52,317 nucleotides of DNA from Candidatus Heimdallarchaeota archaeon (GCA_019057375.1 DXJF01000057.1:1-52317), one strand, 5' to 3'; positions 1 to 15,753 are shown, numbered from the stretch's first letter. Numbers and translations are program-made. The notes: generated by a model from the sequence alone, not told the origin.

Positions 1-180
1 TCCAACACCTGGTAAAGACATAATTGCAAATTGTCCAGGTTTGTAATCTTCTTCTACAAGACTTTCATCTAAGAATTTAAACTTGAAGTATCTTGTATCT
101 TCTGTCAAATCTTTCATAGCAAGAATTTTTGCTGGTTGTGTTGTATATGCATGATCTCCTTCTCTGGTTGTTATTGTCAT
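1..180 (-). CDS. Sulfhydrogenase gamma / AsrB-like FAD/NAD(P)-binding subunit; N-terminal part only, continues past the left edge
   Basis: Not in the ORF track. Manual translation from the ATG at 180 gives MTITTREGDHAYTTQPAKILAMKDLTEDTRYFKFKFLDESLVEEDYKPGQFAIMSLPGVG, with the PGQF motif of the FNR-type FAD-binding domain. The start overlaps the upstream stop (TAATG). Confidence 0.8.
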   Translation of the reverse strand, partial: MTITTREGDHAYTTQPAKILAMKDLTEDTRYFKFKFLDESLVEEDYKPGQFAIMSLPGVG

Positions 181-1223
181 TATTCACAGACCTCCTGATT
201 TTCACATACTTCTTCATACAATGCTTCAGAAACTGTTATCACATTGATATCTACTGGACAGAAGGTTACACATCTGCCACAACCTACACAGCTTGGTTGT
301 CCCCATTTTCCAATGTATTCCTTTAATTTATGAGTGTAATATAATTTCAAACGAGATGTTCTGTCTGGTCTGAAATCATGGTCACCTGCAACCATGGAAT
401 AATAAGGAAGTGTGCAACTATCTAGAATCCTCTCTCTGATTCCTTCTTCTGTGTTCATACTTATTCTATCTTTTACATTGAAACAATTACATGTTGGACA
501 TACAAGACTACATGTTCCACAAGATAGACATTTTTCACCAAATTGCTCCCAGACCTTACTGTCATAATTCAAATGAATTATATCTGCTAAGTATTTGAAG
601 GAAGGTATTTCGCTTTTGAACATTCCTGACCTCTTTTGTTGCCATCTAACATAATCTTGAATATCTTCTTCTGAAATTTCTTCAGAAAGGAGGTCTTCTG
701 CTTCTATGGCAATACTGAGACCTTTATCTGATCCTACCCATACAAGATAGTACTTTTCTAATTCTGTAAAAAACAAATCAAAACCGTCTTCTACCATGTC
801 AGTGCCTGTTGATTTACAGATACAATTCTCATCAGGGAAGCACGAATGACCTATTATTATCAGATTATTTCTTCGTTTTTCATAATATGGATCTTTTATG
901 TTCCCTAGGAACAATCTATCCAGAATATTAATTCCGTGAATATCACAAGGATGTACTCCCACAACTATTTGAGGTTCATCACTGACAAATACATCAGCTT
1001 GACCAGACTTATCATAACGAAGAGTGGGATATCTAGATGGTGTAAGGAATTTTTTCGGACCTATCACAGTTCTTTGATAATCGAAATCAAGATCTTCAAA
1101 TTTCTCGATTTCTTCAAAGGAATATTTTCCGTTTCCCTTTACTGGTCCATAGAGCTGCCCTTTAGTTTTTATTAGCTCAATGAACTCTGGAAACCTATCC
1201 TTAGACATCTTATAAGTTTTCAT
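180..1223 (-). CDS. Sulfhydrogenase beta / AsrA-like Fe-S subunit
   Basis: GVHPCD motif, C-x6-C-x-C, CLSCGTCSLVCPTCNCF and CVGCGRCVTFCPVDI clusters; directly followed by a gamma-like gene. Confidence 0.85.
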   Translation of the reverse strand: MKTYKMSKDRFPEFIELIKTKGQLYGPVKGNGKYSFEEIEKFEDLDFDYQRTVIGPKKFLTPSRYPTLRYDKSGQADVFVSDEPQIVVGVHPCDIHGINILDRLFLGNIKDPYYEKRRNNLIIIGHSCFPDENCICKSTGTDMVEDGFDLFFTELEKYYLVWVGSDKGLSIAIEAEDLLSEEISEEDIQDYVRWQQKRSGMFKSEIPSFKYLADIIHLNYDSKVWEQFGEKCLSCGTCSLVCPTCNCFNVKDRISMNTEEGIRERILDSCTLPYYSMVAGDHDFRPDRTSRLKLYYTHKLKEYIGKWGQPSCVGCGRCVTFCPVDINVITVSEALYEEVCENQEVCE

Positions 1224-1722: not shown

Positions 1723-2733
1723 ATGAATAAAAAAGAAATTGAAGAGAAGAATAATAATAGTGATAGCAAGTTACAGTTAGCATTTTATTGGGCTGCTAGT
1801 TGTGGTGGTTGCGAAATTGCTGTTCTAGATATAAATGAAAAAATCTTGGATGTTGTTGCTATTGCTGACATTCTTTTTTGGCCTGTAGCGTTAGACTTCA
1901 AGTATAAAGATGTTGAAGCAATGGATGATAATCAGATAGACGTCTGTTTCTTCAATGGGTCAGTTAGAACTTCTGAACAGAAACATCTAGCAGAATTGCT
2001 TAGAAGAAAATCGAAGACTATGGTAGCTTTTGGTTCGTGTGCTGTTGCAGGAGGTATTCCAGGTCTAGCTAATTTAGCAAGTCGTGAGGAAATATTTCAC
2101 GTCGCTTACCTTGAAAATCCTTCCACAGCTAATCCTCAAGGAATATTACCTAAAACTGAGGTTGAAGTAAAGGAAGGAATTCTAACTCTTCCTGAATTTT
2201 ATGATGAAGTTAGGAGTCTCAACCAAGTTATAGATGTTGATTATTACCTACCTGGTTGTCCACCTCATCCTGATCTTATTATGACAGCTATTGGAGCTAT
2301 AGTTGAAAACAAACTTCCTGCTAAAGGTTCAGTAATTGGTCCATTAAAGTCCGTTTGTGATGAATGCAGATTTGAAAAAACAGAGAAGAAAATAGATTCA
2401 ATTAAAAGAATTTACGAGCTTGAAACAATAGAAGATAAGTGTCTTCTAGAACAGGGAGTTATTTGTTTAGGACCTGCTACACGAGGAGGGTGTGGTGCAC
2501 AATGTCTGGATGCTAATATGCCCTGTACTGGATGCGGAGGACCAGCTCCTAATTCCATTGATCAAGGTGCAAGTATGATGTCTGCTTTGGCTTCTATACT
2601 TGGACTAGAAGGAGAAGAGGAAATGAAAGAAGAAGAAGTAGAGAAGCTAATTGAACAAATAGTAGACCCAGTTGGTACTTTTTACAAATATGGCTTACCA
2701 ACTGCCATAATCAATAGGAAGGCGAAAGAATGA
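1723..2733 (+). CDS. mvhG: F420-non-reducing [NiFe]-hydrogenase small subunit (MvhG-like)
   Basis: WAASCGGC, FGSCA and PGCPP motifs, distal CLLEQG..CLGPATRGGCGAQC...CTGC cluster; GGTGA Shine-Dalgarno-like element upstream. Confidence 0.9.
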   Translation: MNKKEIEEKNNNSDSKLQLAFYWAASCGGCEIAVLDINEKILDVVAIADILFWPVALDFKYKDVEAMDDNQIDVCFFNGSVRTSEQKHLAELLRRKSKTMVAFGSCAVAGGIPGLANLASREEIFHVAYLENPSTANPQGILPKTEVEVKEGILTLPEFYDEVRSLNQVIDVDYYLPGCPPHPDLIMTAIGAIVENKLPAKGSVIGPLKSVCDECRFEKTEKKIDSIKRIYELETIEDKCLLEQGVICLGPATRGGCGAQCLDANMPCTGCGGPAPNSIDQGASMMSALASILGLEGEEEMKEEEVEKLIEQIVDPVGTFYKYGLPTAIINRKAKE

Positions 2734-4196
2734 CAAAAACTATTACAATTGATCCAGTAACAAGATTAGAGGGACACGGAAAGATAGTTATTTTTCTTAC
2801 TGAAAAAGGAGATGTTGATAATGTTTATCTTCAAATACCAGAGTTAAGGGGATTTGAACGTTTTTCACAAGGAAGAAGAGCAGAAGACATGCCACAAATA
2901 ACCTCTAGAATATGTGGTGTTTGTCCAGTAGCTCATCATTTCGCTTCAGCAAAAGCATTAGATAGGGCTTTTAATGTCGACCCTCCTCCAGTTGCTAAAA
3001 AACTCAGAGAATTAATGTATTGTGGATACTTTATTTACGATCATATATTGCATTTTTACTATTTAGGGGGACCAGATTTTGTTGTAGGTCCAGAAGCTCC
3101 AGCTGCTAAGAGAAACATATTAGGAGTCATTGAAAAAGCTGGAATTGAAATTGGGAAAGAAGTCATTAAACACAGAGCTTATGGACAAAAAATTACTGCT
3201 ATCTTAGGTGGTAAAGCAACTCACCCAGTCTGTGGTTTACCTGGAGGTGTATCTAAACCACTTTCTTCAGATGAAGTTACGGAAATCAAAACTATGGTCA
3301 AATCTTGTGTAGACTTTGCTCAATTCTCACTGAAACTCTTTGATGATATCGTTCTCAAAAATGAGGATTATGTTAATCTCATTCTAAGTGATCCTTATAC
3401 TTTGAAGACTTACAACATGGGTTTGGTAGACGAAAATAACAAAGTAAATTTCTATGATGGATTAATTCGTGTAACTGATACTCAAGGAAAAGAGTTTCTC
3501 AAATTTGATGTTAATGACTATTTCCAACATATAGACGAACATGTTGAAGAATGGAGTTATATTAAATTTCCATATCTGAAAAAGATTGGTTGGAATGGTT
3601 TTACTGATGGTCAAGAAAGCGGTGTTTATAGAGTAGGACCACTTGGAAGGCTAAATGCAGCAGATGGAATGGCAACTCCTTTAGCAGAAGCAGAAAACAA
3701 AAGAATGTATGAAACTTTAGGAGGAAAACCTGTCAATTCTACATTAGCTTTTCATTGGGCAAGATTAATAGAATTATTATATGCAACAGAAAGAGCTCAA
3801 GAGCTGATAAATGAACCAGATATAACTTCCAAAAAAATCAGGAACCCAGTTGGACAACCTGGTGAGGGTATAGGAGTTACTGAAGCAGCTCGTGGAACGC
3901 TTATTCATCATTATAAGCTAGATGAAAAGGGATTAATCAAAAAAGCAAATCTCGTTGTAGCTACAACCAATAATTCCGCAGCAATTAGTATGTCGATTAG
4001 AGAAGCTGCTAAAGGACTTATCAAGAAAGGAGTAGTTAATGACGGACTACTCAATATGGTAGAGATGGCATTTAGAGCATATGATCCTTGTTTTGCATGT
4101 GCTACACATTCACTTCCAGGTCAAATGCTTTTGGAAGTACAGGTTTATTCACATGATAAAATTTTACTCAAAACCATAAAAAGAGGTTCTTCATAA
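2730..4196 (+). CDS. mvhA: [NiFe]-hydrogenase large subunit, group 3c-like (MvhA)
   Basis: TRLEGHG, L1 RICGVC and L2 RAYDPCFACATH motifs, followed by a cleavable C-terminal extension; all ligands are Cys. Confidence 0.93.
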   Translation: MTKTITIDPVTRLEGHGKIVIFLTEKGDVDNVYLQIPELRGFERFSQGRRAEDMPQITSRICGVCPVAHHFASAKALDRAFNVDPPPVAKKLRELMYCGYFIYDHILHFYYLGGPDFVVGPEAPAAKRNILGVIEKAGIEIGKEVIKHRAYGQKITAILGGKATHPVCGLPGGVSKPLSSDEVTEIKTMVKSCVDFAQFSLKLFDDIVLKNEDYVNLILSDPYTLKTYNMGLVDENNKVNFYDGLIRVTDTQGKEFLKFDVNDYFQHIDEHVEEWSYIKFPYLKKIGWNGFTDGQESGVYRVGPLGRLNAADGMATPLAEAENKRMYETLGGKPVNSTLAFHWARLIELLYATERAQELINEPDITSKKIRNPVGQPGEGIGVTEAARGTLIHHYKLDEKGLIKKANLVVATTNNSAAISMSIREAAKGLIKKGVVNDGLLNMVEMAFRAYDPCFACATHSLPGQMLLEVQVYSHDKILLKTIKRGSS

Positions 4197-4648
4197 TGAC
4201 TGTAACTGAAACAAAAACTGAATTGGAAGAGTTTGAACCTAATATAATAGGCTTCTTATGCAATTGGTGCAGTTATGCTGGAGCTGATCTAGCTGGAACC
4301 AGCAGGATACAATATCCCGCCAACATTAAGATCATCAAAGTGATGTGTTCTGGAAGAGTAAATCCAATGTATGTTGTTAATGCTCTTCAACAAGGAGCTG
4401 ATGGTGTTTTAATCGGAGGTTGTCATCCTGGTGATTGTCATTATCAACATGGTAACTTGTTAGCTAGACGACGAATGGCAATTCTGAAGAATCTTCTGGA
4501 ATTCATTGGGATAGATTCACGGAGGGTTCGAATGACCTGGGTTAGTGCAGCTGAAGGTAGGAAATTTGCTGAAGTAATTAAAGAAGTTACAGAGGAGATA
4601 AAAAAGATTGGTCCAATGAAAGATATTCAGAGGGTGAATGAATGGTAG
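4196..4648 (+). CDS. mvhD: MvhD/FlxD [2Fe-2S] subunit, copy 1
   Basis: FLCNWCSYAGAD, MCSGRV, GADGV..GGCHPGDCHY motifs. Confidence 0.93.
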   Translation: MTVTETKTELEEFEPNIIGFLCNWCSYAGADLAGTSRIQYPANIKIIKVMCSGRVNPMYVVNALQQGADGVLIGGCHPGDCHYQHGNLLARRRMAILKNLLEFIGIDSRRVRMTWVSAAEGRKFAEVIKEVTEEIKKIGPMKDIQRVNEW

Positions 4649-5625
4649 ATCAGCAACTGCTTATAGATGAAGTTAAGAAAGTTGTATCACGTGATGATGT
4701 TAAATATGTTATTGGCTATAAGAAAGGAACATCTGGTTTTGCAATAAGTCCAGCATTTGCTTACTCCACTGAATATGCAGATAAATTCATCTTTAATCCC
4801 CTGTGCAAAAAGAATCTTGCTGCTTATCCCCTCTTAGAAGATAAACTTCCTTTAAAACGAGAAGAAAAAGAGGATAAAAGAAAGATAGGCATTGTTGCAA
4901 AAGGGTGTGACACTCGAGCTTTGGTTCAGATTATCCAAGAGAAAGGGCTTAAACGTGAGGACTTAGTTATTATTGGAATTCCGTGTTCGGGTATAATTGA
5001 TCACAAGAAAATTACAGCAAAATTCCCCAATGAAACAGCTTATTCTACGATAGAAGAAGAGCAAGGATTTTATAAAATCACAATTAATGGAAAGGTTCAT
5101 GAAATTGCAAAAGAGGAACTATTAGCAGATTTCTGTTCTAGTTGTATTGCTCCTAATCCTGTAATTTATGATGTACTTATTGGGGAAGAGGTTGAACCTT
5201 GGAATTTGGAAGAGCATAAGAATCTTGCTGTTCTAGAAGAAAAAGATGTTGGAGAGAGATGGGAATACTGGAAAGAACACTTTGATAGATGTATTCGATG
5301 TTATGCTTGTAGAGAAGCATGTCCATTATGTTATTGTAAGGAATGTATGGCTGATCTTCTTAATCCTCAGTGGATAAGACGATCTGTAAATCTATCAGAA
5401 AATACTGCTTGGAATATTATGCGAGCATATCATCTAGCAGGACGTTGTGTAGGGTGTGGAGAGTGTGAATCTGTTTGTCCTGTAAATATCCCTCTTATGG
5501 AACTAAACAAAGAAATTGAGAAAGACGTGAAAAAAATGTTTGAATATTCTGCAGGTATGGATTTGGAAGAAAAACCGCTGTTTGGTACCTTCCGACCTGA
5601 TGATCCTGAGGAGTTTATTATGTGA
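4642..5625 (+). CDS. FlxC-like (FdhB/FrhB-related) 4Fe-4S dicluster protein
   Basis: KGCD motif, CIRCYACREACPLCYCKEC and CVGCGECESVCP clusters; position matches the flxDCBA order. Confidence 0.75.
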   Translation: MVDQQLLIDEVKKVVSRDDVKYVIGYKKGTSGFAISPAFAYSTEYADKFIFNPLCKKNLAAYPLLEDKLPLKREEKEDKRKIGIVAKGCDTRALVQIIQEKGLKREDLVIIGIPCSGIIDHKKITAKFPNETAYSTIEEEQGFYKITINGKVHEIAKEELLADFCSSCIAPNPVIYDVLIGEEVEPWNLEEHKNLAVLEEKDVGERWEYWKEHFDRCIRCYACREACPLCYCKECMADLLNPQWIRRSVNLSENTAWNIMRAYHLAGRCVGCGECESVCPVNIPLMELNKEIEKDVKKMFEYSAGMDLEEKPLFGTFRPDDPEEFIM

Positions 5626-5631
5626 GGTGTT

Positions 5632-6663
5632 ATGATGGAAACTTTAATTTTACAAAAAGACAAACTTCCTAAACTGATTGAGAAGCTCTCTTCCAGTCAT
5701 GTTCTATATGGTCCTACTGAAGAAAATGGATTTTCATTGTTCAAGCAAATTAAGGATTTCAAGGAACTAAACCTAAAATATCTTCTAACACGTGTCTCTC
5801 CAAAATCTCTTATCTTCAAACAGACAGAGACACTATTCAAGTTTATACCAGGGCGAAAAGGTGCAGTCACTTCGTCAAAAATAAATGAAGAGAAGAGTAT
5901 AATTTTTGCAATTAGACCTTGTGATGCGCGTAGTTTTAAAATACTTGATCCAGTATTCAATGGAGATTTTGAGGATCCTTTTTACATTTCAAAAAGGAAA
6001 AATACTGTTCTAATCGGATTAACTTGTAACTCTCCAGAGAAGAATTGTTTCTGCACTTCATTTGATGATAGTCCTGGTTCAACCGAAAATGTTGACATTC
6101 TTTTTACAGATTTAGATGATAGGTTCTATGTAGAAGTAGTTACAGAAAAAGGAAAAAATCTGATAAAATCAATAGAAGATATATTTGAAAAATCTACAAA
6201 AAATGATGAAGATTCAAAGAGAAATATTGTAACCAATTCTGTTGAAAGTATCACAAGAAAAATGGATCTTGATAGTTTAGCACTTAAACTTGATAAGATG
6301 TTTGATCACGAATTATGGCATAATACTGCCCAAAAATGTATTGGTTGTGGAATCTGTACTTATTTGTGTCCGACATGTCATTGCTTTGATATGCAAGACG
6401 AGAGCACTTTGAAACTAGGTGGGAGAGTACGTATATGGGATTCATGTATGTATGAAGAATATACTCATCATGCATCAGGTCATAATCCTAGACCCTCGAG
6501 AATGAATAGAGTAAGAAATAGAGTTTATCACAAGTTCAGCTATTTCCCTAAGAATGAAGATATCTCTGCTTGTACGGGTTGTGGAAGATGTATTGATTAT
6601 TGTCCTGTAAATATTGATATAATTGATGTAATAGAAAAAGTGGGGGTCATAGCAAATGAGTAA
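5632..6663 (+). CDS. FlxB-like (AsrA / sulfhydrogenase beta family) Fe-S protein
   Basis: IRPCD, NCFCTS, CIGCGICTYLCPTCHCF and CTGCGRCIDYCP motifs. Confidence 0.8.
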   Translation: MMETLILQKDKLPKLIEKLSSSHVLYGPTEENGFSLFKQIKDFKELNLKYLLTRVSPKSLIFKQTETLFKFIPGRKGAVTSSKINEEKSIIFAIRPCDARSFKILDPVFNGDFEDPFYISKRKNTVLIGLTCNSPEKNCFCTSFDDSPGSTENVDILFTDLDDRFYVEVVTEKGKNLIKSIEDIFEKSTKNDEDSKRNIVTNSVESITRKMDLDSLALKLDKMFDHELWHNTAQKCIGCGICTYLCPTCHCFDMQDESTLKLGGRVRIWDSCMYEEYTHHASGHNPRPSRMNRVRNRVYHKFSYFPKNEDISACTGCGRCIDYCPVNIDIIDVIEKVGVIANE

Positions 6664-7495
6664 AAACCCATATAGTCCATGGTTAGCTACAATTTCTGGA
6701 ATTAAACAAGAAGCTGTTGGTGAGAGACCTATTAAGACTTTCAAATTAGTTTTGGAAGACGAAGAAATAAGGAATAATTTCTCTTTTATTCCAGGTCAGT
6801 GTATTATGGTTAGTCTTTTTGGCACTGGTGAATGTTTCTTTGCTATTTCTTCTTCACCAACTCAAAAGGAATACATAGAAGTGAGCGTTCTAAAATTGGG
6901 TAAAGTAACAACTGAGCTGCACCAATTTGAACCGGGAGATACCGTAGGATTGAGAGGTCCTTATGGTAACCACTTTGATGTGAAAGGTTGGGAAGGAAAG
7001 AATATACTATTTATTGGTGGAGGAATTGGTCAAGCCCCTCTTCGTTCTATTATTAATTTCGCTCTAGATAACCGAGAAAAATATAAGAATCTGGACATTA
7101 TTTATGGAGCTAGAAGCACTAATGATTTGTGCTACAAAGATGAATTCGCAGAATTAGGAAAGAGAGATGATGTTAATATCCATCTCTCTATAGATGTTGA
7201 AGAAGAGGGGTGGGATGAATTTGTGGGATTTGTTCCTGATAATCTAAAGAGATTGAATCCCTCTCCAGATAATACTATTGCAATAACATGCGGACCTCCT
7301 GTGATGATCAAGTATGTCATTCAAAATTTAGAGGTTCTTGGATTTAAAGACAATCAAATTTTCACGACCCTAGAAATGAGAATGAAATGTGGAATAGGCA
7401 TTTGTGGAAGGTGTAACATAGGCAATCTCTATGTTTGTAAAGATGGTCCAGTGTTTTCATATGAACAACTGAGAAATCTAGAAGGAGATATGTAA
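6656..7495 (+). CDS. FlxA-like FAD/NAD(P)-binding [2Fe-2S] subunit (AsrB / sulfhydrogenase gamma family)
   Basis: PGQC, RGPYG, GGGIGQAPLRS, TCGPP and MKCGIGICGRC...VCKDGPVF motifs. Confidence 0.85.
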   Translation: MSKNPYSPWLATISGIKQEAVGERPIKTFKLVLEDEEIRNNFSFIPGQCIMVSLFGTGECFFAISSSPTQKEYIEVSVLKLGKVTTELHQFEPGDTVGLRGPYGNHFDVKGWEGKNILFIGGGIGQAPLRSIINFALDNREKYKNLDIIYGARSTNDLCYKDEFAELGKRDDVNIHLSIDVEEEGWDEFVGFVPDNLKRLNPSPDNTIAITCGPPVMIKYVIQNLEVLGFKDNQIFTTLEMRMKCGIGICGRCNIGNLYVCKDGPVFSYEQLRNLEGDM

Positions 7496-7505
7496 GGGTG
7501 GTATT

Positions 7506-9452
7506 ATGAAAATAGGCGTATATATATGTGAGTGTGGGATAAATATAGCTGCTACAGTAGATGTACCTCAAGTTGTAGAGAGAATAAAAGCTCTTCCAAA
7601 TGTAAAAATTTGTCGTATGAATAAATACACTTGTTCTGATCCTGGCCAAGAATCTATTAGAAAGGACATAAGAGAGCTGAATCTAGATAGAGTTGTAGTT
7701 GCTTCATGTTCTCCAAGGATGCATGAATCTACCTTTAGAGGTGTTGTTGAAGAGACAGGTGTTAATCCATATTGTTTTGAGATGGTAAACATCAGGGAAC
7801 ATGTTTCTTGGGTGCATACTGATACTGAACGAGCAACAGAGAAAGCAATAGAACTTATTTCTGGTGCTGTCGCTAGAGCTCAATTTCTCGAACCCTTAGA
7901 ACGTAAGGAAGTAAGTGTTATTCCCAAATCTTTGGTAATAGGAGGAGGTGTATCTGGTATTCAAACTGCTTTAGAGATTGCTAATGATGGGTTTCAGGTC
8001 TATCTTGTTGATCAAAATCCAAGTATTGGAGGAAGAATGGCTCAATTAGACAAGACTTTTCCAACCTTAGATTGTTCAGCATGTATTCTGACCCCCAAAA
8101 TGGTGGATGCTGCAAGACACCCAAATATAGAACTTTTGACATATTCAGAAATCGAGAGAGTTGATGGTTATATTGGTAATTTCAAAGTCACTGTCAAAAA
8201 GAAACCAAGATACGTAGATATTGACAAATGTGTAGGGTGTGGACTCTGCGCTGAAGCATGTAGATTAAATGGAAGAGTTCCTAACGAATTTGACGAGAAC
8301 CTAAGTAAAAGAAGTGCAATTTATATCCCATTTCCTCAAGCTGTTCCGTTAAAGTACACAATAGATCCAGAACGTTGTAATATGTTAAGATTCGGAAAAT
8401 GTGGAGATGAGCTACTTTGTGTTAGTGCATGCGAACAAAATGCAATCGATTTTGATCAGAAAGAAGAATTAGTAGAAGTAGATGTGGGAACTATTGTTGT
8501 AGCAACAGGTTTTGATAATTTTGATCCATCAACAGAAACAAAGTATGGTTATAAGGAAAATGCAAGTGTAATAACAGGAATGGAATTTGAAAGAATAGTA
8601 AATGCAGCAGGTCCAACTGAAGGACATCTTGAAATTAATGGCAAAGAACTTGAGAATGTAGTTTTTATCCAATGTGTTGGTTCAAGGGATAAAGAAGGAC
8701 ACGAATACTGCTCAAGAGTCTGCTGCATGTATACTGCTAAACAAGCACATATGGTTAGAGATAAATATCCTGATACAAAAATAACAGTTTATTTCACAGA
8801 TGTTAGAGCTTTTGGTAAAGGATTTGAGGAATTTTATAATAGAATTAAAGACGAAGATATTGATTACAAAAGAAGAGAATTGGATGATCCAATTCAGGTT
8901 GTTGGCAATGAAGGTGGTGCAATTGTTAAAGCTGAAGGTCATCCTGATATCAATGCAGACTTGGTCGTGTTAGCAACAGGGTTGGTACCTAGAAAGGATA
9001 ACAAAGAGCTAGCTAGAAAACTTAATATCAGTTTGAGCGGAGACGGTTTCCTTTTAGAAGCTCATCCAAAGCTCCGCCCCTTAGATACTTTTACGGATGG
9101 GATTTTCATAGCAGGTTGTTGTCAGAGTCCTAAAGATATACCAGATTCAGTTGCGCAAGCAAGTGGAGCGGCAGTTAGAGCAGCTGCTCCTTTAGCTCAA
9201 GGTAAAGTTCAAGTCGAGGCTATTACTGCTATAATAGATGATGATTTGTGCAGTGGATGTCGTATTTGTGAGAAAATATGTGATTATTCTGCTTTAGAAT
9301 TTGTCAGTGATGATAAAATCATGAAGATAAATGATGTTTTGTGTAAAGGCTGTGGTTCATGTGCAGCTGCTTGCCCAACGGGTGCTATAACAATGAAACA
9401 CTATAGCAATAAGCAAGTCCTTGCTCAAATTGGAGGTATTTTAGCTAAATAG
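7506..9452 (+). CDS. hdrA: Heterodisulfide reductase subunit A, canonical size
   Basis: IGVYICECG, GGGVSG FAD motif, LDKTFPTLDCSACIL, inserted ferredoxin domain, CSRVCCMY, GCCQSPKDIP and C-terminal ferredoxin domain. Confidence 0.93.
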   Translation: MKIGVYICECGINIAATVDVPQVVERIKALPNVKICRMNKYTCSDPGQESIRKDIRELNLDRVVVASCSPRMHESTFRGVVEETGVNPYCFEMVNIREHVSWVHTDTERATEKAIELISGAVARAQFLEPLERKEVSVIPKSLVIGGGVSGIQTALEIANDGFQVYLVDQNPSIGGRMAQLDKTFPTLDCSACILTPKMVDAARHPNIELLTYSEIERVDGYIGNFKVTVKKKPRYVDIDKCVGCGLCAEACRLNGRVPNEFDENLSKRSAIYIPFPQAVPLKYTIDPERCNMLRFGKCGDELLCVSACEQNAIDFDQKEELVEVDVGTIVVATGFDNFDPSTETKYGYKENASVITGMEFERIVNAAGPTEGHLEINGKELENVVFIQCVGSRDKEGHEYCSRVCCMYTAKQAHMVRDKYPDTKITVYFTDVRAFGKGFEEFYNRIKDEDIDYKRRELDDPIQVVGNEGGAIVKAEGHPDINADLVVLATGLVPRKDNKELARKLNISLSGDGFLLEAHPKLRPLDTFTDGIFIAGCCQSPKDIPDSVAQASGAAVRAAAPLAQGKVQVEAITAIIDDDLCSGCRICEKICDYSALEFVSDDKIMKINDVLCKGCGSCAAACPTGAITMKHYSNKQVLAQIGGILAK

Positions 9453-9464
9453 GAGATGAACATT

Positions 9465-12400
9465 ATGAAAGTAGGTGTATATGTATGTGAATGTGGGATT
9501 AACATCAGTGCAACAGTTGATGTTGAGAAAGTTGCTGAAGTTGCCAATGATTTTCCAAATGTAGAAGTTAGCAGATATTACAAGTACATGTGTTCAGATC
9601 CAGGTCAAGAACTTATCAAAAAAGACATTGAAAATCTTGGTTTAGATCGTATTGTAGTAGCTTCTTGTTCTCCTAGAATGCATGAACCAACATTTAGAGC
9701 TGTTGTTGAAGAAAAAGGAATGAATCCTTACAATCTTGAAATGGTTAATATTAGAGAACAAAATTCATGGGTTCATAAAGATAAGGAAATAGGAACGGAG
9801 AAAGCAATTTCATTGGTAAGAAGTGGAGTTCTCAAAGCATCGCTTCTAAAACCTCTAATTAAGAAAAAAGTAGGTGTAACCCCAAATGCTCTTATTATAG
9901 GTGGTGGAATAGCGGGGATTCAAGCGGCTTTAGATATTGGAAATATGGGTTTTCATGCATATCTAGTTGAAAAAACACCCAGTATTGGAGGAACGATGGC
10001 TCAGTTAGATAAAACCTTTCCAACTCTAGATTGTTCAGCGTGTATTTTAACTCCAAAAATGGTAGATGTAGCTCGTCATCCAAATGTTGAACTTATGACC
10101 TATTCTGAGATAGAAAAAGTTGATGGTTATATTGGCAATTTCAAAGTTACTGTCAAAAAGAAACCACGCTATGTTGATATAAACAAATGTACAGCCTGTG
10201 GAGACTGTGTAGAAAATTGTCCTGTAATAGAGTTTGATGAATATAACGCAAATTTGATGACAAAAAAAGCAATCTACATACCTTTTCCTCAAGCTGTTCC
10301 TCAGAAATATACTATTGCTAAATTAGAGGAATACTCTCCCTGTAAAGTAACATGTCCTGCAAGTAATAATGCTCAAGGATACGTTCAACTAATAGGTATA
10401 GGAAAATATAAAGAAGCTCTTGGTGTAATCCGAGATAAAAATCCGTTTCCTTCAGTTTGTGGAAGAGTTTGTCATCATCCTTGTGAAGAGGTTTGTAAAA
10501 GAGCTGAAATTGATGAACCTGTGTCAATAATGCAATTAAAAAGATTCGCTGCAGACTATAATAGATTACATGATGAACCTCCTCCAGAGGTTATAGAACC
10601 TACAAAAGAAGAAGAAATAGCTATTATTGGAGCTGGACCTTCAGGACTATCCTGTGCTATCAGATTGCTTGAGCAAGGTTATCCTGTAACAGTCTATGAT
10701 GAAGCAGATATTCCTGGGGGAATTATGACAAGTTGTCTTCCTTCTTATCGTCTTCCTCCAGATTTAGCATTATATGATATAAACCGACTATTAGACCAAG
10801 GAATAAACCTGATTAAAAACACTAAGGTTGGAAAAGATATTTCTTTTGAAGAGATTAAGAATAAATATGATGCTGTTTTCATAGGAATTGGAGCTCAGCT
10901 CCCCGCTGTCTTAGAAGTTGAAGGTTCTAATGTTTCAGGAGTTTTAGAAGGATTAACTTTCCTAAAGGATGCGAAAAAAGGAATAAAAACACCAGAATTT
11001 GGAGAAAAATTAATTGTCATTGGTGGTGGAAACGTAGCAATGGATTGTGCTAAAGTTGCACTACGAATGGGAACAAAAGAAGTCAATGTTGTTTGTCTGG
11101 AGACAAGAGATTTAGCATTGAAAGATAGAATGCCTGCTGATGTGTGGGAAATAGAAGAATCAGAAGAAGAAGGTGTAATATTCTTTAATGAACTAGGTCC
11201 CAAAAAGATACTTAGCAAGAAAGGAAAAGTTACAGGTTTAGAAACCATGATCTGTTCTTCAGTTTATGAAGAAGATGGTTCATTCAAACCAGAATTTAGT
11301 GATGATTCCTCTCCAGTAATTAAAGGTGATACTGTTATCTTTGCTATAGGACAGAAATCTGATTTAACAGGTTTTGAAGAAATTGAAACAAATCCTGGAG
11401 GTAGAACATTAAAAATCGACACGATTACCTTTGAAACAAGTATTCCAGGAGTATTTGCCGGTGGAGATATAATTCCAGGTGTACCATCAGTAGTCAATGC
11501 AATAGGAACTGGTGCTGAAGCTGCGATTTCAATTGACAGATATTTACGAAAAGTTGACATTAAGGAAGGTAGAGTTAGAGATATAACAAAGATAGATTTT
11601 GTTAGAATTGATAAAGAGAAACGTCCTAGAGCGAAAATGAAACGCGCTCCTGTTGAGGAAAGAATAAAGGATTTCAGAGAAATTGATTTAGGCTATATTG
11701 AGGAAGAAGCTGTTCAAGAAGCACTAAGATGTATCTCCTGTTCGATCTGTTCTGAATGTATGCAATGTGTTGAAACATGTGAAGCAGAAGCTATAATTCA
11801 TGATCAAGAAGTTGAATATGTGGAACTAGACATAGGTGCAATAGTTGTTGCAACAGGATTTGACAACTATAACCCAAGTAATAAACCTGAATATGGATAT
11901 GGTCAAACTTCAAATGTTATTACAGCGATTGAATTTGAAAGATTAGTTTCTTCTTCAGGACCAACTGAAGGTCATATTGAGATTAATGGAAAAGAACCCG
12001 AGAATGTGGTTTTTATCCAATGCGTTGGTTCAAGGGATAAAGAAGGACATGAGTACTGTTCAAGAGTCTGCTGCATGTATACAGCTAAACAAGCTCATAT
12101 GGTAAGAGACAAATTACCAAAATCTAAATTAACTGTTTATAATACGGATGTTAGAGCATTTGGGAAGGGATTTGAAGAATTCTACAATAGAGTACAAGCA
12201 GAGGATATTGACTATAGAAGAAGAGAATTAGAAGACTCCATACAAGTTGTCGGAAATGAAGAAGGAGTAATCGTTAAAGCAGAAGGACATCCAGATATTC
12301 ATGCAGATCTTGTTGTATTGGCTACTGGTCTAATTCCGCGGGATGATTCAAAAGAACTATCCAGACTTTTGAATATTAATATGAGTGAAGATGGATATTT

Positions 12401-12818
12401 CATGGAAGCTCATCCAAAGCTTCGACCTGTTGATACTTTTACAGATGGTGTTTTCTTAGCGGGATGCTGCCAAAGCCCAAAAGATATACCTGATACAGTA
12501 GCTCAAGCTAGTAGTGCAGCATCAAGAGCATGCAATATACTCTCACAAGAAGAATTGGAAATAGAAGCAACAATTGCTCACGTTGATGAGAGTTTGTGTA
12601 GAGGATGTGGATTTTGTGTTGAATCATGTCCGTATTCAGCAATAGAACTCAAGATAATTAATCAATATGGATACGAAACTGAAGTGGCAAGTGTTAATGA
12701 AGCATTATGTAAGGGATGTGGAAGCTGTGCCGCAGCGTGTTTGAATGGTGCAATTAACCATTTAGGATATACTGATCATCAGATACTTGCACAAATAAAA
12801 GCATTAGGAGAAAAATAG
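9465..12818 (+). CDS. hdrA: Large HdrA with an inserted GltD/glutamate-synthase-beta-like flavin/NAD(P)H module
   Basis: All HdrA motifs plus an insert (~10335-11741) with CPA..CGRVCHHPCE, GAGPSG and GGGNVAMD. Start placed at ATG 9465 from the spacing to AGGAG; the ORF track starts at 9456. Confidence 0.9.
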   Translation: MKVGVYVCECGINISATVDVEKVAEVANDFPNVEVSRYYKYMCSDPGQELIKKDIENLGLDRIVVASCSPRMHEPTFRAVVEEKGMNPYNLEMVNIREQNSWVHKDKEIGTEKAISLVRSGVLKASLLKPLIKKKVGVTPNALIIGGGIAGIQAALDIGNMGFHAYLVEKTPSIGGTMAQLDKTFPTLDCSACILTPKMVDVARHPNVELMTYSEIEKVDGYIGNFKVTVKKKPRYVDINKCTACGDCVENCPVIEFDEYNANLMTKKAIYIPFPQAVPQKYTIAKLEEYSPCKVTCPASNNAQGYVQLIGIGKYKEALGVIRDKNPFPSVCGRVCHHPCEEVCKRAEIDEPVSIMQLKRFAADYNRLHDEPPPEVIEPTKEEEIAIIGAGPSGLSCAIRLLEQGYPVTVYDEADIPGGIMTSCLPSYRLPPDLALYDINRLLDQGINLIKNTKVGKDISFEEIKNKYDAVFIGIGAQLPAVLEVEGSNVSGVLEGLTFLKDAKKGIKTPEFGEKLIVIGGGNVAMDCAKVALRMGTKEVNVVCLETRDLALKDRMPADVWEIEESEEEGVIFFNELGPKKILSKKGKVTGLETMICSSVYEEDGSFKPEFSDDSSPVIKGDTVIFAIGQKSDLTGFEEIETNPGGRTLKIDTITFETSIPGVFAGGDIIPGVPSVVNAIGTGAEAAISIDRYLRKVDIKEGRVRDITKIDFVRIDKEKRPRAKMKRAPVEERIKDFREIDLGYIEEEAVQEALRCISCSICSECMQCVETCEAEAIIHDQEVEYVELDIGAIVVATGFDNYNPSNKPEYGYGQTSNVITAIEFERLVSSSGPTEGHIEINGKEPENVVFIQCVGSRDKEGHEYCSRVCCMYTAKQAHMVRDKLPKSKLTVYNTDVRAFGKGFEEFYNRVQAEDIDYRRRELEDSIQVVGNEEGVIVKAEGHPDIHADLVVLATGLIPRDDSKELSRLLNINMSEDGYFMEAHPKLRPVDTFTDGVFLAGCCQSPKDIPDTVAQASSAASRACNILSQEELEIEATIAHVDESLCRGCGFCVESCPYSAIELKIINQYGYETEVASVNEALCKGCGSCAAACLNGAINHLGYTDHQILAQIKALGEK

Positions 12819-12821
12819 AAG

Positions 12822-13316
12822 TTGAGATCAATAATAATAGGATTAGGTAACCCTATAGTCGGAGATGATGCTATAGCTATCAAAGTTATGGAGCATATTA
12901 GGGATACATTTTCTCCTATAAAAAATACTAAAATCTTGGCTGATATATCGATTGCAGGTTTGGGAATAGTGGAATTGATTAGAGGATATGAAAGCGTTAT
13001 ACTTGTAGATTCAATTCAAACAGGAAACAATTCAGTAGGAACAGTAATACAGCTTAAACCTGAAGAATTCTCACTTGCTTTACATACTTCACATTATCAC
13101 AATATAGACCTCTTTACAGCCTTGGAATTTAGTAATCAAATGTATGATGATGTACCAAAAGATATCAAAATCATCGGGATAGAAATCATTAATCCCATGG
13201 AGTTTAGTGATGAATTATCACTCGAACTCCAAAATAAGTTTGAAGAAATCGTTAATCAGGTTTATCAAATAATTATTCAAGAATTAAAAAAGAAAATTAC
13301 CGCAAATATCGTGTGA
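12822..13316 (+). CDS. Hydrogenase maturation protease (HyaD/HybD family)
   Basis: IGLGNPIVGDDA, VILVDS and SHYHN motifs; TTG start. Confidence 0.88.
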   Translation: MRSIIIGLGNPIVGDDAIAIKVMEHIRDTFSPIKNTKILADISIAGLGIVELIRGYESVILVDSIQTGNNSVGTVIQLKPEEFSLALHTSHYHNIDLFTALEFSNQMYDDVPKDIKIIGIEIINPMEFSDELSLELQNKFEEIVNQVYQIIIQELKKKITANIV

Positions 13317-13356
13317 AGATAACAAATTTAGTATAAATTAAAAGGAGAAAAATAAA

Positions 13357-13773
13357 ATGGCAGATTATGAACCTAATATTATCGGTTTCCTTTGTAATTG
13401 GTGCAGTTATGCTGGAGCTGATCTAGCAGGAACTAGTAGAATTAAGTATCCTACAAATATCAAAATAATTCGTGTCATGTGCACTGGGCGAGTTGATCCA
13501 GCATTTGTTCTAGAATCATTTAGAAAAGGAGCAGATGGAGTATTAATCTCTGGATGTCATTTTGGTGAGTGTCATTATAAATCTGGTAACTATAAAGCTA
13601 GTCGTCGAATAAAGCTCACAAAGAAATTTTTAGAAGAGATGGGAATTAATCCTAATAGGCTTAGATTTGAATTTGTCTCTGCCTCAGAAGGCCATAAATT
13701 TGCTGAAGTTGTAACTGAGTTTGTAGACGAATTGAAAAAACTTGGACCTCTGTCTCTTCAACTAATACAATAA
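13357..13773 (+). CDS. mvhD: MvhD/FlxD [2Fe-2S] subunit, copy 2
   Basis: FLCNWCSYAGAD, MCTGRVD, GADGVLISGCHFGECHY motifs; AAGGAG upstream. Confidence 0.93.
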   Translation: MADYEPNIIGFLCNWCSYAGADLAGTSRIKYPTNIKIIRVMCTGRVDPAFVLESFRKGADGVLISGCHFGECHYKSGNYKASRRIKLTKKFLEEMGINPNRLRFEFVSASEGHKFAEVVTEFVDELKKLGPLSLQLIQ

Positions 13774-13823
13774 CCAAAAGAATAAGCAGAAGAATTTTAT
13801 ATTACTTGTTATTTTTTATTTCG

Positions 13824-14807
13824 ATGCCAAGGATATTAGTTACTGGAGCTACCGGATGTACAGGAATAGGAGTTCTACATTACCTTAAAGCTAAAGGTTA
13901 CACCAACATTTATGGTATGGTAAGAAAAACTCCTTCAGATCCAATACCAAGTGTTAATTATCTAACTGGTGACCTAACAGATAAACAATCCATTATCAAA
14001 ATTCTAAAAGAAAATGAAATTGATACTATTTGGCATCTTGCAGCAGCTGTTCATAGAAAAGTTAAGAAGAGAGATTTTGCCAAAGTAAATTTTGAAGGAA
14101 CGAATAACATCATTCAAGCAGCTGTTGATTATGGAGTTAAGTCAATTATTTTTGCTAGCACAACTGCTGTTTATGGAAAAATTATTGAGTCTCCAGCAAC
14201 TGAAAATCATCAAATCAAACCTAAAGGTCTTTATGCAAAATCAAAATTAAATGCTGAAGTTTTGATAAAACTGATGTGTGAAGAGAATGGGATTAAAGGA
14301 AGTATCTTACGTATTCCTTTAATTTTGGGAAAACATGATCGCCATTTCTATCCAGTAGTAAGAAAGTTGGTAAAGACAAATATTATGCCTATTTTAGGAA
14401 ATAACACACATGAAGTTTCAATAGTTCATCCATATGATATAGGTCAGGCTTTTGAGATTCTAAATCAAAATGGTAAAGAAGAAATTGAATGTTATAATAT
14501 TGTTTCATGTAATAGATCATTCAAAGATTTGATACTAATTATAGAGAAACATCTTGTTGGGAAAAAGAGATTCAAATATACTCTTCCTTACCCAATAGTC
14601 TATGTAGCAGTTTGGATGTTTGAAAGGATTCACTGGTTCTTCTCACCAAGGAAGCAACCATTAATCAATCGTGAATATGCAAGAATGGTAGGGAAAGAAT
14701 GGATTTTCGCTACTGATAAACTTGAGCAGTTAGGGTATACCCCTATGATGAATCTTGAAGAAATAATAAAAGATACTGTTTTTGATGAAATATCTCCTGT
14801 TCCATAG
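13824..14807 (+). CDS. NAD-dependent epimerase/dehydratase (extended SDR)
   Basis: ILVTGATGCTG, HLAAA, STTAVYG and YAKSK motifs; start set at ATG 13824. Confidence 0.85.
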   Translation: MPRILVTGATGCTGIGVLHYLKAKGYTNIYGMVRKTPSDPIPSVNYLTGDLTDKQSIIKILKENEIDTIWHLAAAVHRKVKKRDFAKVNFEGTNNIIQAAVDYGVKSIIFASTTAVYGKIIESPATENHQIKPKGLYAKSKLNAEVLIKLMCEENGIKGSILRIPLILGKHDRHFYPVVRKLVKTNIMPILGNNTHEVSIVHPYDIGQAFEILNQNGKEEIECYNIVSCNRSFKDLILIIEKHLVGKKRFKYTLPYPIVYVAVWMFERIHWFFSPRKQPLINREYARMVGKEWIFATDKLEQLGYTPMMNLEEIIKDTVFDEISPVP

Positions 14808-14865
14808 GATACACTTAATTTCTTACTCACAAAACTTTTGAAGAAGTCAAATAGATTCCATTTTA

Positions 14866-15753
14866 ATGAGTACTGAAATAATTTCTATAACAGAAGATTG
14901 TATAGGATGTGGAAGCTGTTCCAATGTTTGTCCACGATATATTTTTGATATAGTTGATAAGAAAGCTGTAACTAACCGGAATCTTTTCCGATGTCATGAC
15001 TGCGGTCATTGTGTTACAGTATGTTCAGAGAATGCGATAGTTCAACATAGAATGATAGAGAAGTCACTAGATGAAGATTTCCCCAAGAAAGGGAAAACAC
15101 TATCTTATGAGCAGGTTCTGGAAACAATTCGACAGAGAAGATCAATCAGATATTTTTCAGATAAGAAAGTGACTAAAGAACAAATAAAACAGCTGATAGA
15201 TTTAGGGAGATACGCACCTACAGGACATAATGATAGGAAGGTTTCTTATACAATAATCAATGATAGAAACGAACTTGAGTATCTCCTCGATAATATGATT
15301 GAGCTTTTCAAGAAACTCAAGAAACAGTTGAATAGTACTTTCTGGAATGTTCTTGCTGTGTTAACTGGTAAAAAGAAGTTCTTTGATAAAGCTAAGAAAA
15401 GTCTGTATAGATTAGAGAGTCACATAGATCATTGGGAGAAGGGAATAGACAAAGTTCTACACTATTCATCAACACTAATGCTGATACATACAGATAATGA
15501 AACTTCTTCACCAATCGAAGATTGTAATATAGCAGCTCAGAATATAGCTTTAGGTGCTCCATCTCTAGGTTTGGGGGCTACATTCATTGGTTATGTCCAG
15601 AAGAGTTGGGAAAACTCAAATAGAATTAGAGAGATCATAAATCTACCACAAAATCATACTCTTTATGCATGCTTAGCTATAGGATACCCAAAGAACAATT
15701 ATAGAAGATTAGTTCCAAGACCAGAACCGTCAGTTACATGGAAAACTAGCTGA
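14866..15753 (+). CDS. Nitroreductase family protein with an N-terminal 2x[4Fe-4S] ferredoxin domain
   Basis: CIGCGSCSNVCP and CHDCGHCVTVC clusters, then RRSIRYF, APTGHN and LGLGATFIG nitroreductase motifs. Confidence 0.88.
   Translation: MSTEIISITEDCIGCGSCSNVCPRYIFDIVDKKAVTNRNLFRCHDCGHCVTVCSENAIVQHRMIEKSLDEDFPKKGKTLSYEQVLETIRQRRSIRYFSDKKVTKEQIKQLIDLGRYAPTGHNDRKVSYTIINDRNELEYLLDNMIELFKKLKKQLNSTFWNVLAVLTGKKKFFDKAKKSLYRLESHIDHWEKGIDKVLHYSSTLMLIHTDNETSSPIEDCNIAAQNIALGAPSLGLGATFIGYVQKSWENSNRIREIINLPQNHTLYACLAIGYPKNNYRRLVPRPEPSVTWKTS

Follow-up and report, generated by a model that had tools for sequence, protein, structure and literature searches.

What takes the place of HdrB and HdrC in a hydrogenase operon that carries two flavoproteins of the heterodisulfide reductase A (HdrA) family and neither of these partner subunits? 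The question is raised by positions 1723-13773 of a 52,317-nucleotide stretch of DNA from a Candidatus Heimdallarchaeota archaeon (GCA_019057375.1, DXJF01000057.1:1-52317), hereafter the window, which corresponds to contig C158 of an assembly with 89% completeness; all genome-wide absences and counts given below are scoped to that assembly. The nearest relatives of the source genome are metagenome-assembled genomes (MAGs) labelled Candidatus Heimdallarchaeota. The operon joins a group 3c-type [NiFe]-hydrogenase (MvhAG), an FlxABC module, two MvhD adaptors and two HdrAs, and these parts, with their cofactor motifs, are conserved as a set with no hdrBC in cis. The answer that we favour, tentatively and as somewhat short of an even chance, is an HdrA1/HdrA2 complex that would reversibly couple H2, NAD(P)H and ferredoxin without dedicated HdrBC. 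It rests on an either/or pattern, in which loci carry either HdrCB or HdrA1 plus Flx, and on the observation that the sole hdrCB pair in the genome is accompanied by hdrA and flx genes of its own.

Ten plus-strand open reading frames (ORFs) fill 1723-13773 exactly; neighbours overlap by up to 8 nt or stand at most 40 nt apart. They encode, in order, the hydrogenase small (Fe-S) subunit MvhG, of group 3c type (1723-2733; PF01058, 1.8e-26); the [NiFe]-hydrogenase large subunit MvhA (2730-4196; PF00374); a first MvhD, in our view the FlxD that serves the Flx module as its [2Fe-2S] adaptor (4196-4648; PF02662, 2.3e-57); an FlxC-like 2x[4Fe-4S] protein (4642-5625; Fer4_9, Fer4_8 and Fer4_17 at residues 214-283); an FlxB-like Fe-S protein of the ShyB/HydB/AsrA family (5632-6663; PF17179 Fer4_22, 1.6e-34; ShyB, 222 bits); an FlxA-like NAD(P)H:FAD/[2Fe-2S] flavoprotein of the ShyC/HydG/AsrB/PyrK family (6656-7495; PF00175, PF10418 and PF00970); HdrA1, a type I HdrA of 648 aa whose inserted-ferredoxin domain is uninterrupted (7506-9452); HdrA2, a 'type III HdrA' or HdrL-like protein of 1120 aa that carries a GltD/NfnB-like NAD(P)H-FAD-2x[4Fe-4S] module (9456-12818); a [NiFe]-hydrogenase maturation endopeptidase of HycI/HyaD type (12822-13316; PF01750; TIGR00072, 83 bits); and a second MvhD, the hydrogenase-type adaptor (13357-13773; PF02662, 1.5e-57). 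ORF coordinates and Pfam and NCBIfam matches thus bear out the gene order given in an initial annotation of the window. The best NCBIfam models for MvhG and MvhA are VhuG (218 bits) and VhuA (425 bits), both under the equivalog cut-off, and VhuD scores higher for the second MvhD (153 bits) than for the first (137 bits). MvhA carries the motifs RICGVCPVAHH and DPCFACATH, the latter followed by a C-terminal tail of 28 residues, and this cleavable tail explains the protease gene in the operon. It is the only group 3c-type protein among the three [NiFe] large subunits of the genome. MvhD is likewise encoded three times, twice in the window and once on contig C63. No match to NuoF/HydB-like (PF01512) or NuoE/HydC-like (PF01257) domains was found by Pfam in any of the ten operon proteins. 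A Shine-Dalgarno-like AAAGGTGA lies 6 nt before the mvhG ATG, and beyond the stop codon of the second mvhD there is an oligo-T tract; with this ribosome-binding site at the start and tract at the end, the ten genes read as one tightly packed transcription unit. Its layout is that of an mvhG-mvhA-hycI-mvhD block in which an Flx block (D-C-B-A) and a pair of hdrA genes sit nested after mvhA and before hycI.

Both HdrAs retain the motifs of the solved proteins. HdrA1 matches a methanogen HdrA (PDB 8rvu, chain a) with 763 bits across residues 2-645, and HdrA2 matches its NCBIfam model in two pieces (5-300 and 766-1118), with PF14691 and PF07992 on residues 294-686. In the alignment, both proteins share the N-terminal cysteines, the TLDCSAC pair, EFER, CCMYTAK, both C-terminal CxxCxxCxxxC motifs, CVGSRD...YCSRVCCMYTAK and both Cys motifs of the inserted ferredoxin domain. 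All Fe-S cysteine motifs are therefore present in each, and the FAD and six [4Fe-4S] motifs of the MvhAGD-HdrABC type occur in two copies. The motif CVGSRD...YCSRVCC is the one that we take to bind the HA4 cluster. As the initial annotation had stated, both proteins keep the EFER glutamate and the CCMYTAK lysine; in the BamE structure, this lysine is the hallmark by which a bifurcating FAD is told from a non-bifurcating one (10.64898/2026.04.10.717634). In a tree of HdrA C-terminal halves, the HdrA1 clade is sister to the HdrA2 clade (SH-aLRT 99), and the branching within the one parallels that within the other across Heimdall and Thermoplasmatota, which indicates that they were inherited as a pair in two phyla, and their genes are adjacent in every locus compared. 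Such paired inheritance fits the HdrA1/HdrA2 heterodimer suggested in the initial annotation, which we keep as a proposed assembly.

The module carried by HdrA2 (10317-11747, plus strand; about residues 288-764, i.e. ~480 residues) lies, according to the alignment, inside the inserted-ferredoxin domain and separates its two Cys motifs. Among solved structures, it is closest to the NADP(H) modules of 9bov_A, 9n5u_A (NfnA of Nfn-Bfu) and 8oh5_C (E from 1e-90 to 5e-100), which belong to Stn and Nfn-Bfu transhydrogenases, and then to NfnI-L (5jca_L, 4e-73). The glycine motifs for FAD and NAD(P)H are intact (GAGPSG and GGGNVAMD). At the beta2 motif, which is YRRxR in homologues (LYRRTR in a solved one), every Heimdall orthologue reads CLETRD. 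An acidic residue after beta2 commonly accompanies NAD(H), so that CLETRD may point to an NAD(H) preference of this module. The Thermoplasmatales HdrA2 of L016 (1212 aa, L016:11063-14701) differs in having an NADPH-type LYRRSR at this position, and it has an additional 2x[4Fe-4S] ferredoxin domain nested in the GltD module.

HdrB and HdrC are missing from the whole window: PF02754 (the CCG domain) has no match on C158, and the sole TIGR03290 (HdrC) match, inside FlxB, is below threshold (22.9 bits). The absence across 52 kb noted in the initial annotation is thus real. Elsewhere in the genome, PF02754 has two matches. The first, on C37 (L005:5188-8224, minus strand), is a 397-aa HdrD/GlcF-like protein with Fer4_8 and two CCG domains, whose gene adjoins those of a GlcD-like FAD_binding_4 flavoprotein and a GcvH-like lipoyl carrier; judged by sequence, this is a lactate/glycolate-dehydrogenase-type Fe-S pair and not an HdrBC. 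The second belongs to an operon on C63 (L006:5806-17492, minus strand) that comprises kor genes, mvhD (flxD), flxC, flxB, flxA, hdrA, hdrC, hdrB and genes for a Fer4 protein and a fumarate-reductase-like flavoprotein (FrdA). Its hdrC is the sole credible HdrC match in the genome, and its hdrC-hdrB the sole such pair. The search for hdrB, hdrC and hdrD recommended in the initial annotation therefore does find hdrBC in the genome, a result which that annotation had named as adverse if the products work with the complex. Its term 'heterodisulfide-independent' is thus not supported as it stands: the orthologous Heimdall loci share the absence of hdrBC in cis, but an hdrC-hdrB pair is present in the genome. 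The two operons share paralogous modules, as the first MvhD of the window is 78% identical to the C63 FlxD (and 62% to the second MvhD), and FlxC, FlxB and FlxA are 65%, 63% and 73% identical to their C63 counterparts.

Two features of the C63 operon deserve mention. Its hdrC-hdrB-Fer4-FrdA (FAD_binding_2) module closes Hdr operons in the Heimdall family (C63, L049, L050 and L052) and is also found in Thermoplasmatota (L025, L047 and L048). This module resembles, by its domains, a split thiol:fumarate-reductase-like terminal module, and the high-potential partner of these Hdr complexes may be fumarate/succinate and not a free heterodisulfide. Furthermore, the C63 hdrA (L006:9555-11522) encodes a protein whose N-terminal half groups with the N-halves of Heimdall HdrA2 (69% identity) and whose C-terminal half falls outside the HdrA1/HdrA2 clade, while its C-terminal ferredoxin domain shares CLNGAI and a 6-residue insertion with HdrA2; it may be a mosaic, or the product of gene conversion between paralogues.

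Among relatives, the gene order of the window recurs in four Heimdall loci (L007, L008, L010 and L011) at 73-98% protein identity, and two more (L017 and L022) carry the same set with a split HdrA2 variant. No HdrB or HdrC match was found near the operon in any of the six (over 24-kb loci for L007, L008 and L011), so that at least six Heimdall MAGs hold the ten-gene set without nearby hdrCB. An MvhA search detects window-type operons in 10 of the 26 family genomes searched. Three further loci (L019, L024 and L026) have the same genes in a different order and no HdrB or HdrC match within the retrieved stretch, which speaks to co-occurrence in that stretch only. A survey of gene order, as proposed in the initial annotation, thus finds the order again in Heimdall loci and the set again in Thermoplasmatota. 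HdrA2 paired with HdrA1 and Flx is accompanied by hdrCB in none of the seven Heimdall loci (the window and the six above). For solo GltD-inserted or split HdrAs, hdrC-hdrB is immediately adjacent in 10 of 11 loci, eight of them in other Asgard families (L035, L037-L039 and L043-L046) and two in genus-mates (L040 in G151 and L051 in G196). Beside an HdrA with an NAD(P)H module, HdrCB and HdrA1 plus Flx look like alternatives.

How could such an assembly work? In solved Hdr complexes, MvhD leads to the FAD of the partner protomer, the high-potential electron leaves via HA4 to HdrC/B, and the low-potential electron is relayed by the shuttle cluster HA3 to the inserted ferredoxin domain, where HA5/HA6 hand it on to ferredoxin, so that each bifurcating FAD has three exits (PMC13580544). 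The insert of type III HdrA has been proposed to block ferredoxin access and to bring in NAD(P)H (PMC12054007), and an asymmetric complex has been described for the M. maripaludis Hdr and proposed for HdrA paralogues of anaerobic methanotrophic (ANME) archaea (PMC9012536). For the operon studied here, we infer a single soluble multi-flavin [NiFe]-hydrogenase complex on an HdrA1/HdrA2 pair, with one MvhD-type adaptor per HdrA. The second MvhD would join MvhAG and the first (FlxD) would join FlxABC, which would put hydrogenase and Flx on two arms of the complex. Placing Flx-FlxD on HdrA2 and Mvh with the second MvhD on HdrA1 would fit both the 78% identity between the first MvhD and the C63 FlxD and the greater similarity of HdrA2 to Flx-type HdrA (61% identity for its core, against 53% for HdrA1). 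On HdrA1, the free inserted-ferredoxin domain would be the ferredoxin site; on HdrA2, HA5/HA6 would instead lead to a second NAD(P)H/FAD site, with the pair of [4Fe-4S] clusters in the GltD module as the connection. By flavin-based bifurcation or confurcation, the assembly would couple H2/H+ reversibly to NAD(P)H and ferredoxin and, in a peptide-fermenting archaeon, would run from NAD(P)H and reduced ferredoxin to H2. NAD(P)+ would stand in the thermodynamic place of the heterodisulfide and no dedicated HdrBC would be needed. The potentials of H2, NAD+ and ferredoxin are the same as for bifurcating HydABC hydrogenases.

Several observations weigh against independence from HdrBC, and most of them favour a conventional three-exit Hdr complex instead, in which HdrA1/HdrA2-Mvh-Flx docks the HdrC-HdrB of C63 in trans. 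The Fer4-FrdA proteins of C63 would perhaps join it, the acceptor would be some disulfide or fumarate, and H2 and NAD(P)H would be alternative donors. This is a serious possibility, albeit one that we regard as rather doubtful. The required hdrC-hdrB is encoded in the same genome, and co-localisation is unnecessary in methanogens, where HdrA and HdrBC form one complex although their genes are unlinked (PMC6085437). The window also holds the only group 3c hydrogenase of the genome, which makes the sharing of modules between the two operons plausible. Other genomes bring the two together. The family-mate locus L052 reads hdrA-mvhDGA-hycI-hdrCB-Fer4-FrdA, L049 has this arrangement plus a second hdrA, and L050 (genus-mate G196) reads hdrA'-mvhDGA-flxDCBA-hdrA-hycI-hdrCB-Fer4-FrdA, i.e. 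the parts list of the window with HdrCB in cis. Similarly, two Thermoplasmatales genomes, which are the closest non-Heimdall relatives, have a ~30-kb super-cluster (G202 C3, L047 and L016; G201 C19, L048 and L028) with the order Fer4-FrdA, kor, hdrA (type II), hdrC, hdrB, mvhGA-hycI-mvhD, mvhD-flxCBA-hdrA1-hdrA2. It also holds a 356-aa fusion of HdrC-like, Fer4 and MvhD parts. This super-cluster equals the union of the C63 and C158 operons of the source genome, with hdrA (type II)-hdrC-hdrB directly upstream of the orthologous mvhGA. HdrB-like ORFs were found in all seven non-Heimdall genomes tested that carry the cluster, and indeed in every tested genome that holds it, although within the Heimdall genus this count is confounded by the near-universal C63-type operon, and it tells little about independence from HdrBC.

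The proteins themselves raise similar difficulties. Both HdrAs keep the putative HA4 motif, and HA4 feeds HdrC in solved complexes (PMC13580544); as no partner for this exit is encoded in the operon, each flavin would be left with only two exits unless another partner serves it. In addition, the GltD module sits on what is normally the low-potential branch (HA5/HA6). FlxC was considered as a substitute for HdrC at the HA4 exit and rejected, since BLASTP against the C63 HdrC gives no significant similarity (E = 0.06, for a match that spans one Cys motif), and the 65%-identical C63 FlxC coexists with a real HdrC.

Docking in trans has its own difficulties, however. The sole hdrCB pair already has hdrA and flx in cis, and window-type operons of Heimdall never occur with hdrCB while solo GltD-inserted or split HdrAs nearly always do. 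Moreover, a phylum-wide search with HdrA2 detects C63-type HdrA in most genus-mates, including some in which no window-type HdrA2 is detected, so that operons of the C63 type are not tied to the window operon; hdrCB-Fer4-FrdA follows the C63-type HdrA in G097 and G196, the two genomes checked.

Two or more separate enzymes, in which each flavin relays electrons linearly, would be a third solution, and to our mind an unlikely one. The products could be, for example, a ferredoxin-linked hydrogenase (MvhAG, the second MvhD and an HdrA1 dimer) and an Nfn-like NADH/NADPH/ferredoxin transhydrogenase (FlxABCD and an HdrA2 dimer). Without an HA4 partner there are only two exits per flavin (PMC13580544), and in the Thermoplasmatales loci L016 and L028 the blocks stand apart and un-nested, mvhG-mvhA-hycI-mvhD2 being followed by mvhD1-flxCBA-hdrA1-hdrA2. 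The likeness of the insert to the NADP(H) modules of Stn and Nfn-Bfu transhydrogenases agrees with this division, and the contrast between CLETRD and the NADPH-type YRRxR suggests that the two pyridine-nucleotide sites may differ in specificity. HdrA1 and HdrA2 are nevertheless always adjacent and co-diverging, and in Heimdall the flx-hdrA-hdrA genes are nested inside the mvh block in one packed transcription unit. Finally, a chance arrangement or pseudogene can be rejected, as every ORF is intact and conserved and the order recurs in relatives.

The NAD(P)H module of HdrA2 has been replaced in some relatives. In the Heimdall loci L017 and L022 and in several Thermoplasmatota, the hdrA2 counterpart is split at the insert site into three ORFs. 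The first joins the HdrA N-half to a NuoE/HydC-like [2Fe-2S] domain, the second encodes a NuoF/HydB-like FMN protein, and the third joins a Fer2_4 domain to the HdrA C-half. These split forms with a HydBC-like module (L017:3715-8670, L022:10001-14938 and L051:1492-6450) are interrupted at the same position as the GltD insert, and in L017 and L022 both PF01512 and PF01257 are found in place of that insert. In the C-half tree their position is intermediate, with the Thermoplasmatales GltD form (L016) on one side and the Heimdall GltD forms on the other (SH-aLRT 95-97), and the N-half tree gives the same grouping with lower resolution. The NAD(P)H module has thus been exchanged at one site among close relatives. 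The split HdrA of L051 (G196) stands with hdrCB and mvhDGA, and without HdrA1 or Flx. Other Asgard type III HdrAs are only 40-47% identical to the window HdrA2 and are placed elsewhere on the tree. We did not assume a single origin for all Asgard GltD-inserted HdrAs, because the f10, f6 and G151 forms fall outside the HdrA1/HdrA2 clade of the window in the C-half tree, whose deep branches are weakly supported.

The operon also seems to have crossed between phyla. Thermoplasmatales MvhG and MvhA are 77-83% identical to those of the window, whereas other group 3c MvhAs inside the Heimdall genus are only 50-60% identical to the window MvhA. As the Heimdall sequences also lie within Thermoplasmatota diversity in both HdrA paralogue clades of the C-half tree, horizontal transfer between Thermoplasmatota and Heimdall is likely, and its direction was probably into Heimdall. 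A bolder version of the preferred reading would combine all of these elements. It would posit an HdrBC-free bifurcase with an obligate HdrA1/HdrA2 heterodimer and up to three bifurcation-competent flavins (the two lysine-keeping HdrA FADs and the NfnB-like FAD), which couples H2, two pyridine-nucleotide sites and ferredoxin without thiol/disulfide chemistry, as a [NiFe]/HdrA counterpart of HydABC and Nfn in one particle. A single insertion site in the low-potential ferredoxin domain would accept either a GltD-like or a HydBC-like NAD(P)H module, the two being exchangeable, and the complex would have been acquired by Heimdall from Thermoplasmatota. Taken as a whole, this version is speculative and we doubt that it holds in every part.

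The genes around the operon were also compared. Divergent from mvhG is a gene for a Fer4_22 HydB/ShyB-like protein (180-1223, minus strand), whose 95%-identical counterpart in genus-mate G068 opens a hydB-hydG-hydD-hydA-like hydrogenase operon of group 3b type (L053:1890-5869). In the source genome this operon runs past the contig start, and a 430-aa [NiFe] large subunit on C104 may be the missing end. On the other side, 13806-15753 hold genes for an NAD-dependent epimerase/dehydratase (with a start that is probably the ATG near 13825 rather than the TTG at 13806) and a 2x[4Fe-4S]-nitroreductase fusion. This pair, parted from mvhD by the oligo-T tract, recurs 3' of the operon at each orthologous Heimdall locus (48-93% identity), at some of them with ~2 kb extra between.

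Production and consumption of H2 by Asgard archaea are central to syntrophy-based models of eukaryote origins, and published reconstructions give these archaea an 'MvhADG-HdrABC' that acts on an unidentified heterodisulfide (10.1101/726976, PMC11291895). If the operon product works without HdrBC, that disulfide would no longer be required in at least one Heimdall lineage, and the operon would represent a new design for a confurcating hydrogenase. The comparative series, in which the same HdrA core stands with HdrCB-Fer4-FrdA, Flx, a GltD insert or a HydBC-like insert, is useful even with a borrowed HdrCB, as a natural experiment on the rewiring of bifurcating modules. The initial annotation went too far in calling the system undescribed, as both the GltD/NfnB-inserted HdrA (PMC9012536, PMC12054007, PMC2702500) and the proposal that HdrA paralogues pair as a heterodimer (PMC9012536) have been published. 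In the literature we found no description of the ten-gene combination without HdrBC, of the GltD-to-HydBC module exchange at one site, or of the spread of the operon between Thermoplasmatota and Heimdall, and a full-text search for phrasing about independence from HdrBC returned nothing, which speaks to wording in the searched library only. Asgard papers list MvhADG-HdrABC and FlxABCD-HdrABC at a coarse level only (10.1101/726976, 10.1101/2025.02.26.640444, PMC11291895).

Every part of the operon can be assigned by its sequence to a known family, and comparison with known systems concerns how these parts are combined. Like MvhAGD-HdrABC of hydrogenotrophic methanogens (PDB 5ODC, 8RVU), the operon encodes a group 3c-type MvhAG, MvhD, and HdrA with all Fe-S motifs, the Cys pair and the flavin lysine and glutamate. 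It differs in that it lacks HdrB and HdrC, has two different HdrAs and two MvhDs, adds FlxABC, and bears a GltD module on one HdrA. FlxABCD-HdrABC is the NADH dehydrogenase/heterodisulfide reductase described in Desulfovibrio, and with it the operon shares flxD (mvhD)-flxC-flxB-flxA directly upstream of hdrA, a likeness at the domain level and through 63-78% identity to the C63 flxDCBA rather than by comparison with the Desulfovibrio proteins. Unlike that system, which Imachi et al. list for Asgard archaea (10.1101/726976), the unit has no hdrBC, has a hydrogenase attached and follows the gene order D-C-B-A. HdrA2 resembles type III HdrA or HdrA9-11 of ANME-1 and Bathyarchaeota (PMC9012536, PMC12054007) and HdrL (PMC2702500) in that a ~480-500-aa NfnB/GltD-like module interrupts the inserted ferredoxin domain, at the same place as in ANME-1 HdrA9-11 and type III HdrA (PMC9012536, PMC12054007). 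These proteins are also mvhD-associated, the Bathyarchaeota type III cluster also has mvhADG, and in Desulfobacterium autotrophicum most hdrL loci lack hdrBC in cis and one has a tandem hdrL/hdrA (PMC2702500). The HdrA2 of the window differs from published forms in its pairing with a type I HdrA, FlxABC and MvhAG, its separate clade and its CLETRD motif; published hypotheses for type III HdrA retain a heterodisulfide as acceptor (PMC9012536, PMC12054007, PMC2702500).

Two non-identical HdrA units in one core, as proposed here, have precedents in the heterodimer of HdrA paralogues proposed for ANME (PMC9012536) and in BamE, a fused HdrA dimer of class II benzoyl-CoA reductase (BCRII) that was solved with the HydBC-like module BamGHI (10.64898/2026.04.10.717634). 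MvhD-type adaptors to an NAD(H) module are a further likeness, and the sister loci with a NuoE/NuoF/2Fe-2S module resemble BamGHI-BamF-BamE. BamE keeps the bifurcation lysine at one FAD only, unlike the window, where both HdrAs keep it, and the high-potential exit of BCRII is the HdrBC-like BamD, a subunit of a kind that the window operon does not have. Compared with the NfnAB transhydrogenase, the NfnB-like module is present, and FlxA, although a member of the PyrK-like fold family, has far higher scores against HydG, ShyC and AsrB and normally pairs with FlxB. Bifurcating HydABC-type ([FeFe] or [NiFe]) hydrogenases would have the overall reaction in common with the complex proposed here, namely H2 with NAD+ and ferredoxin in a reversible manner. 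The machinery is nonetheless unrelated: the window has no NuoF/HydB FMN subunit, and the bifurcating cofactor would be the FAD of HdrA.

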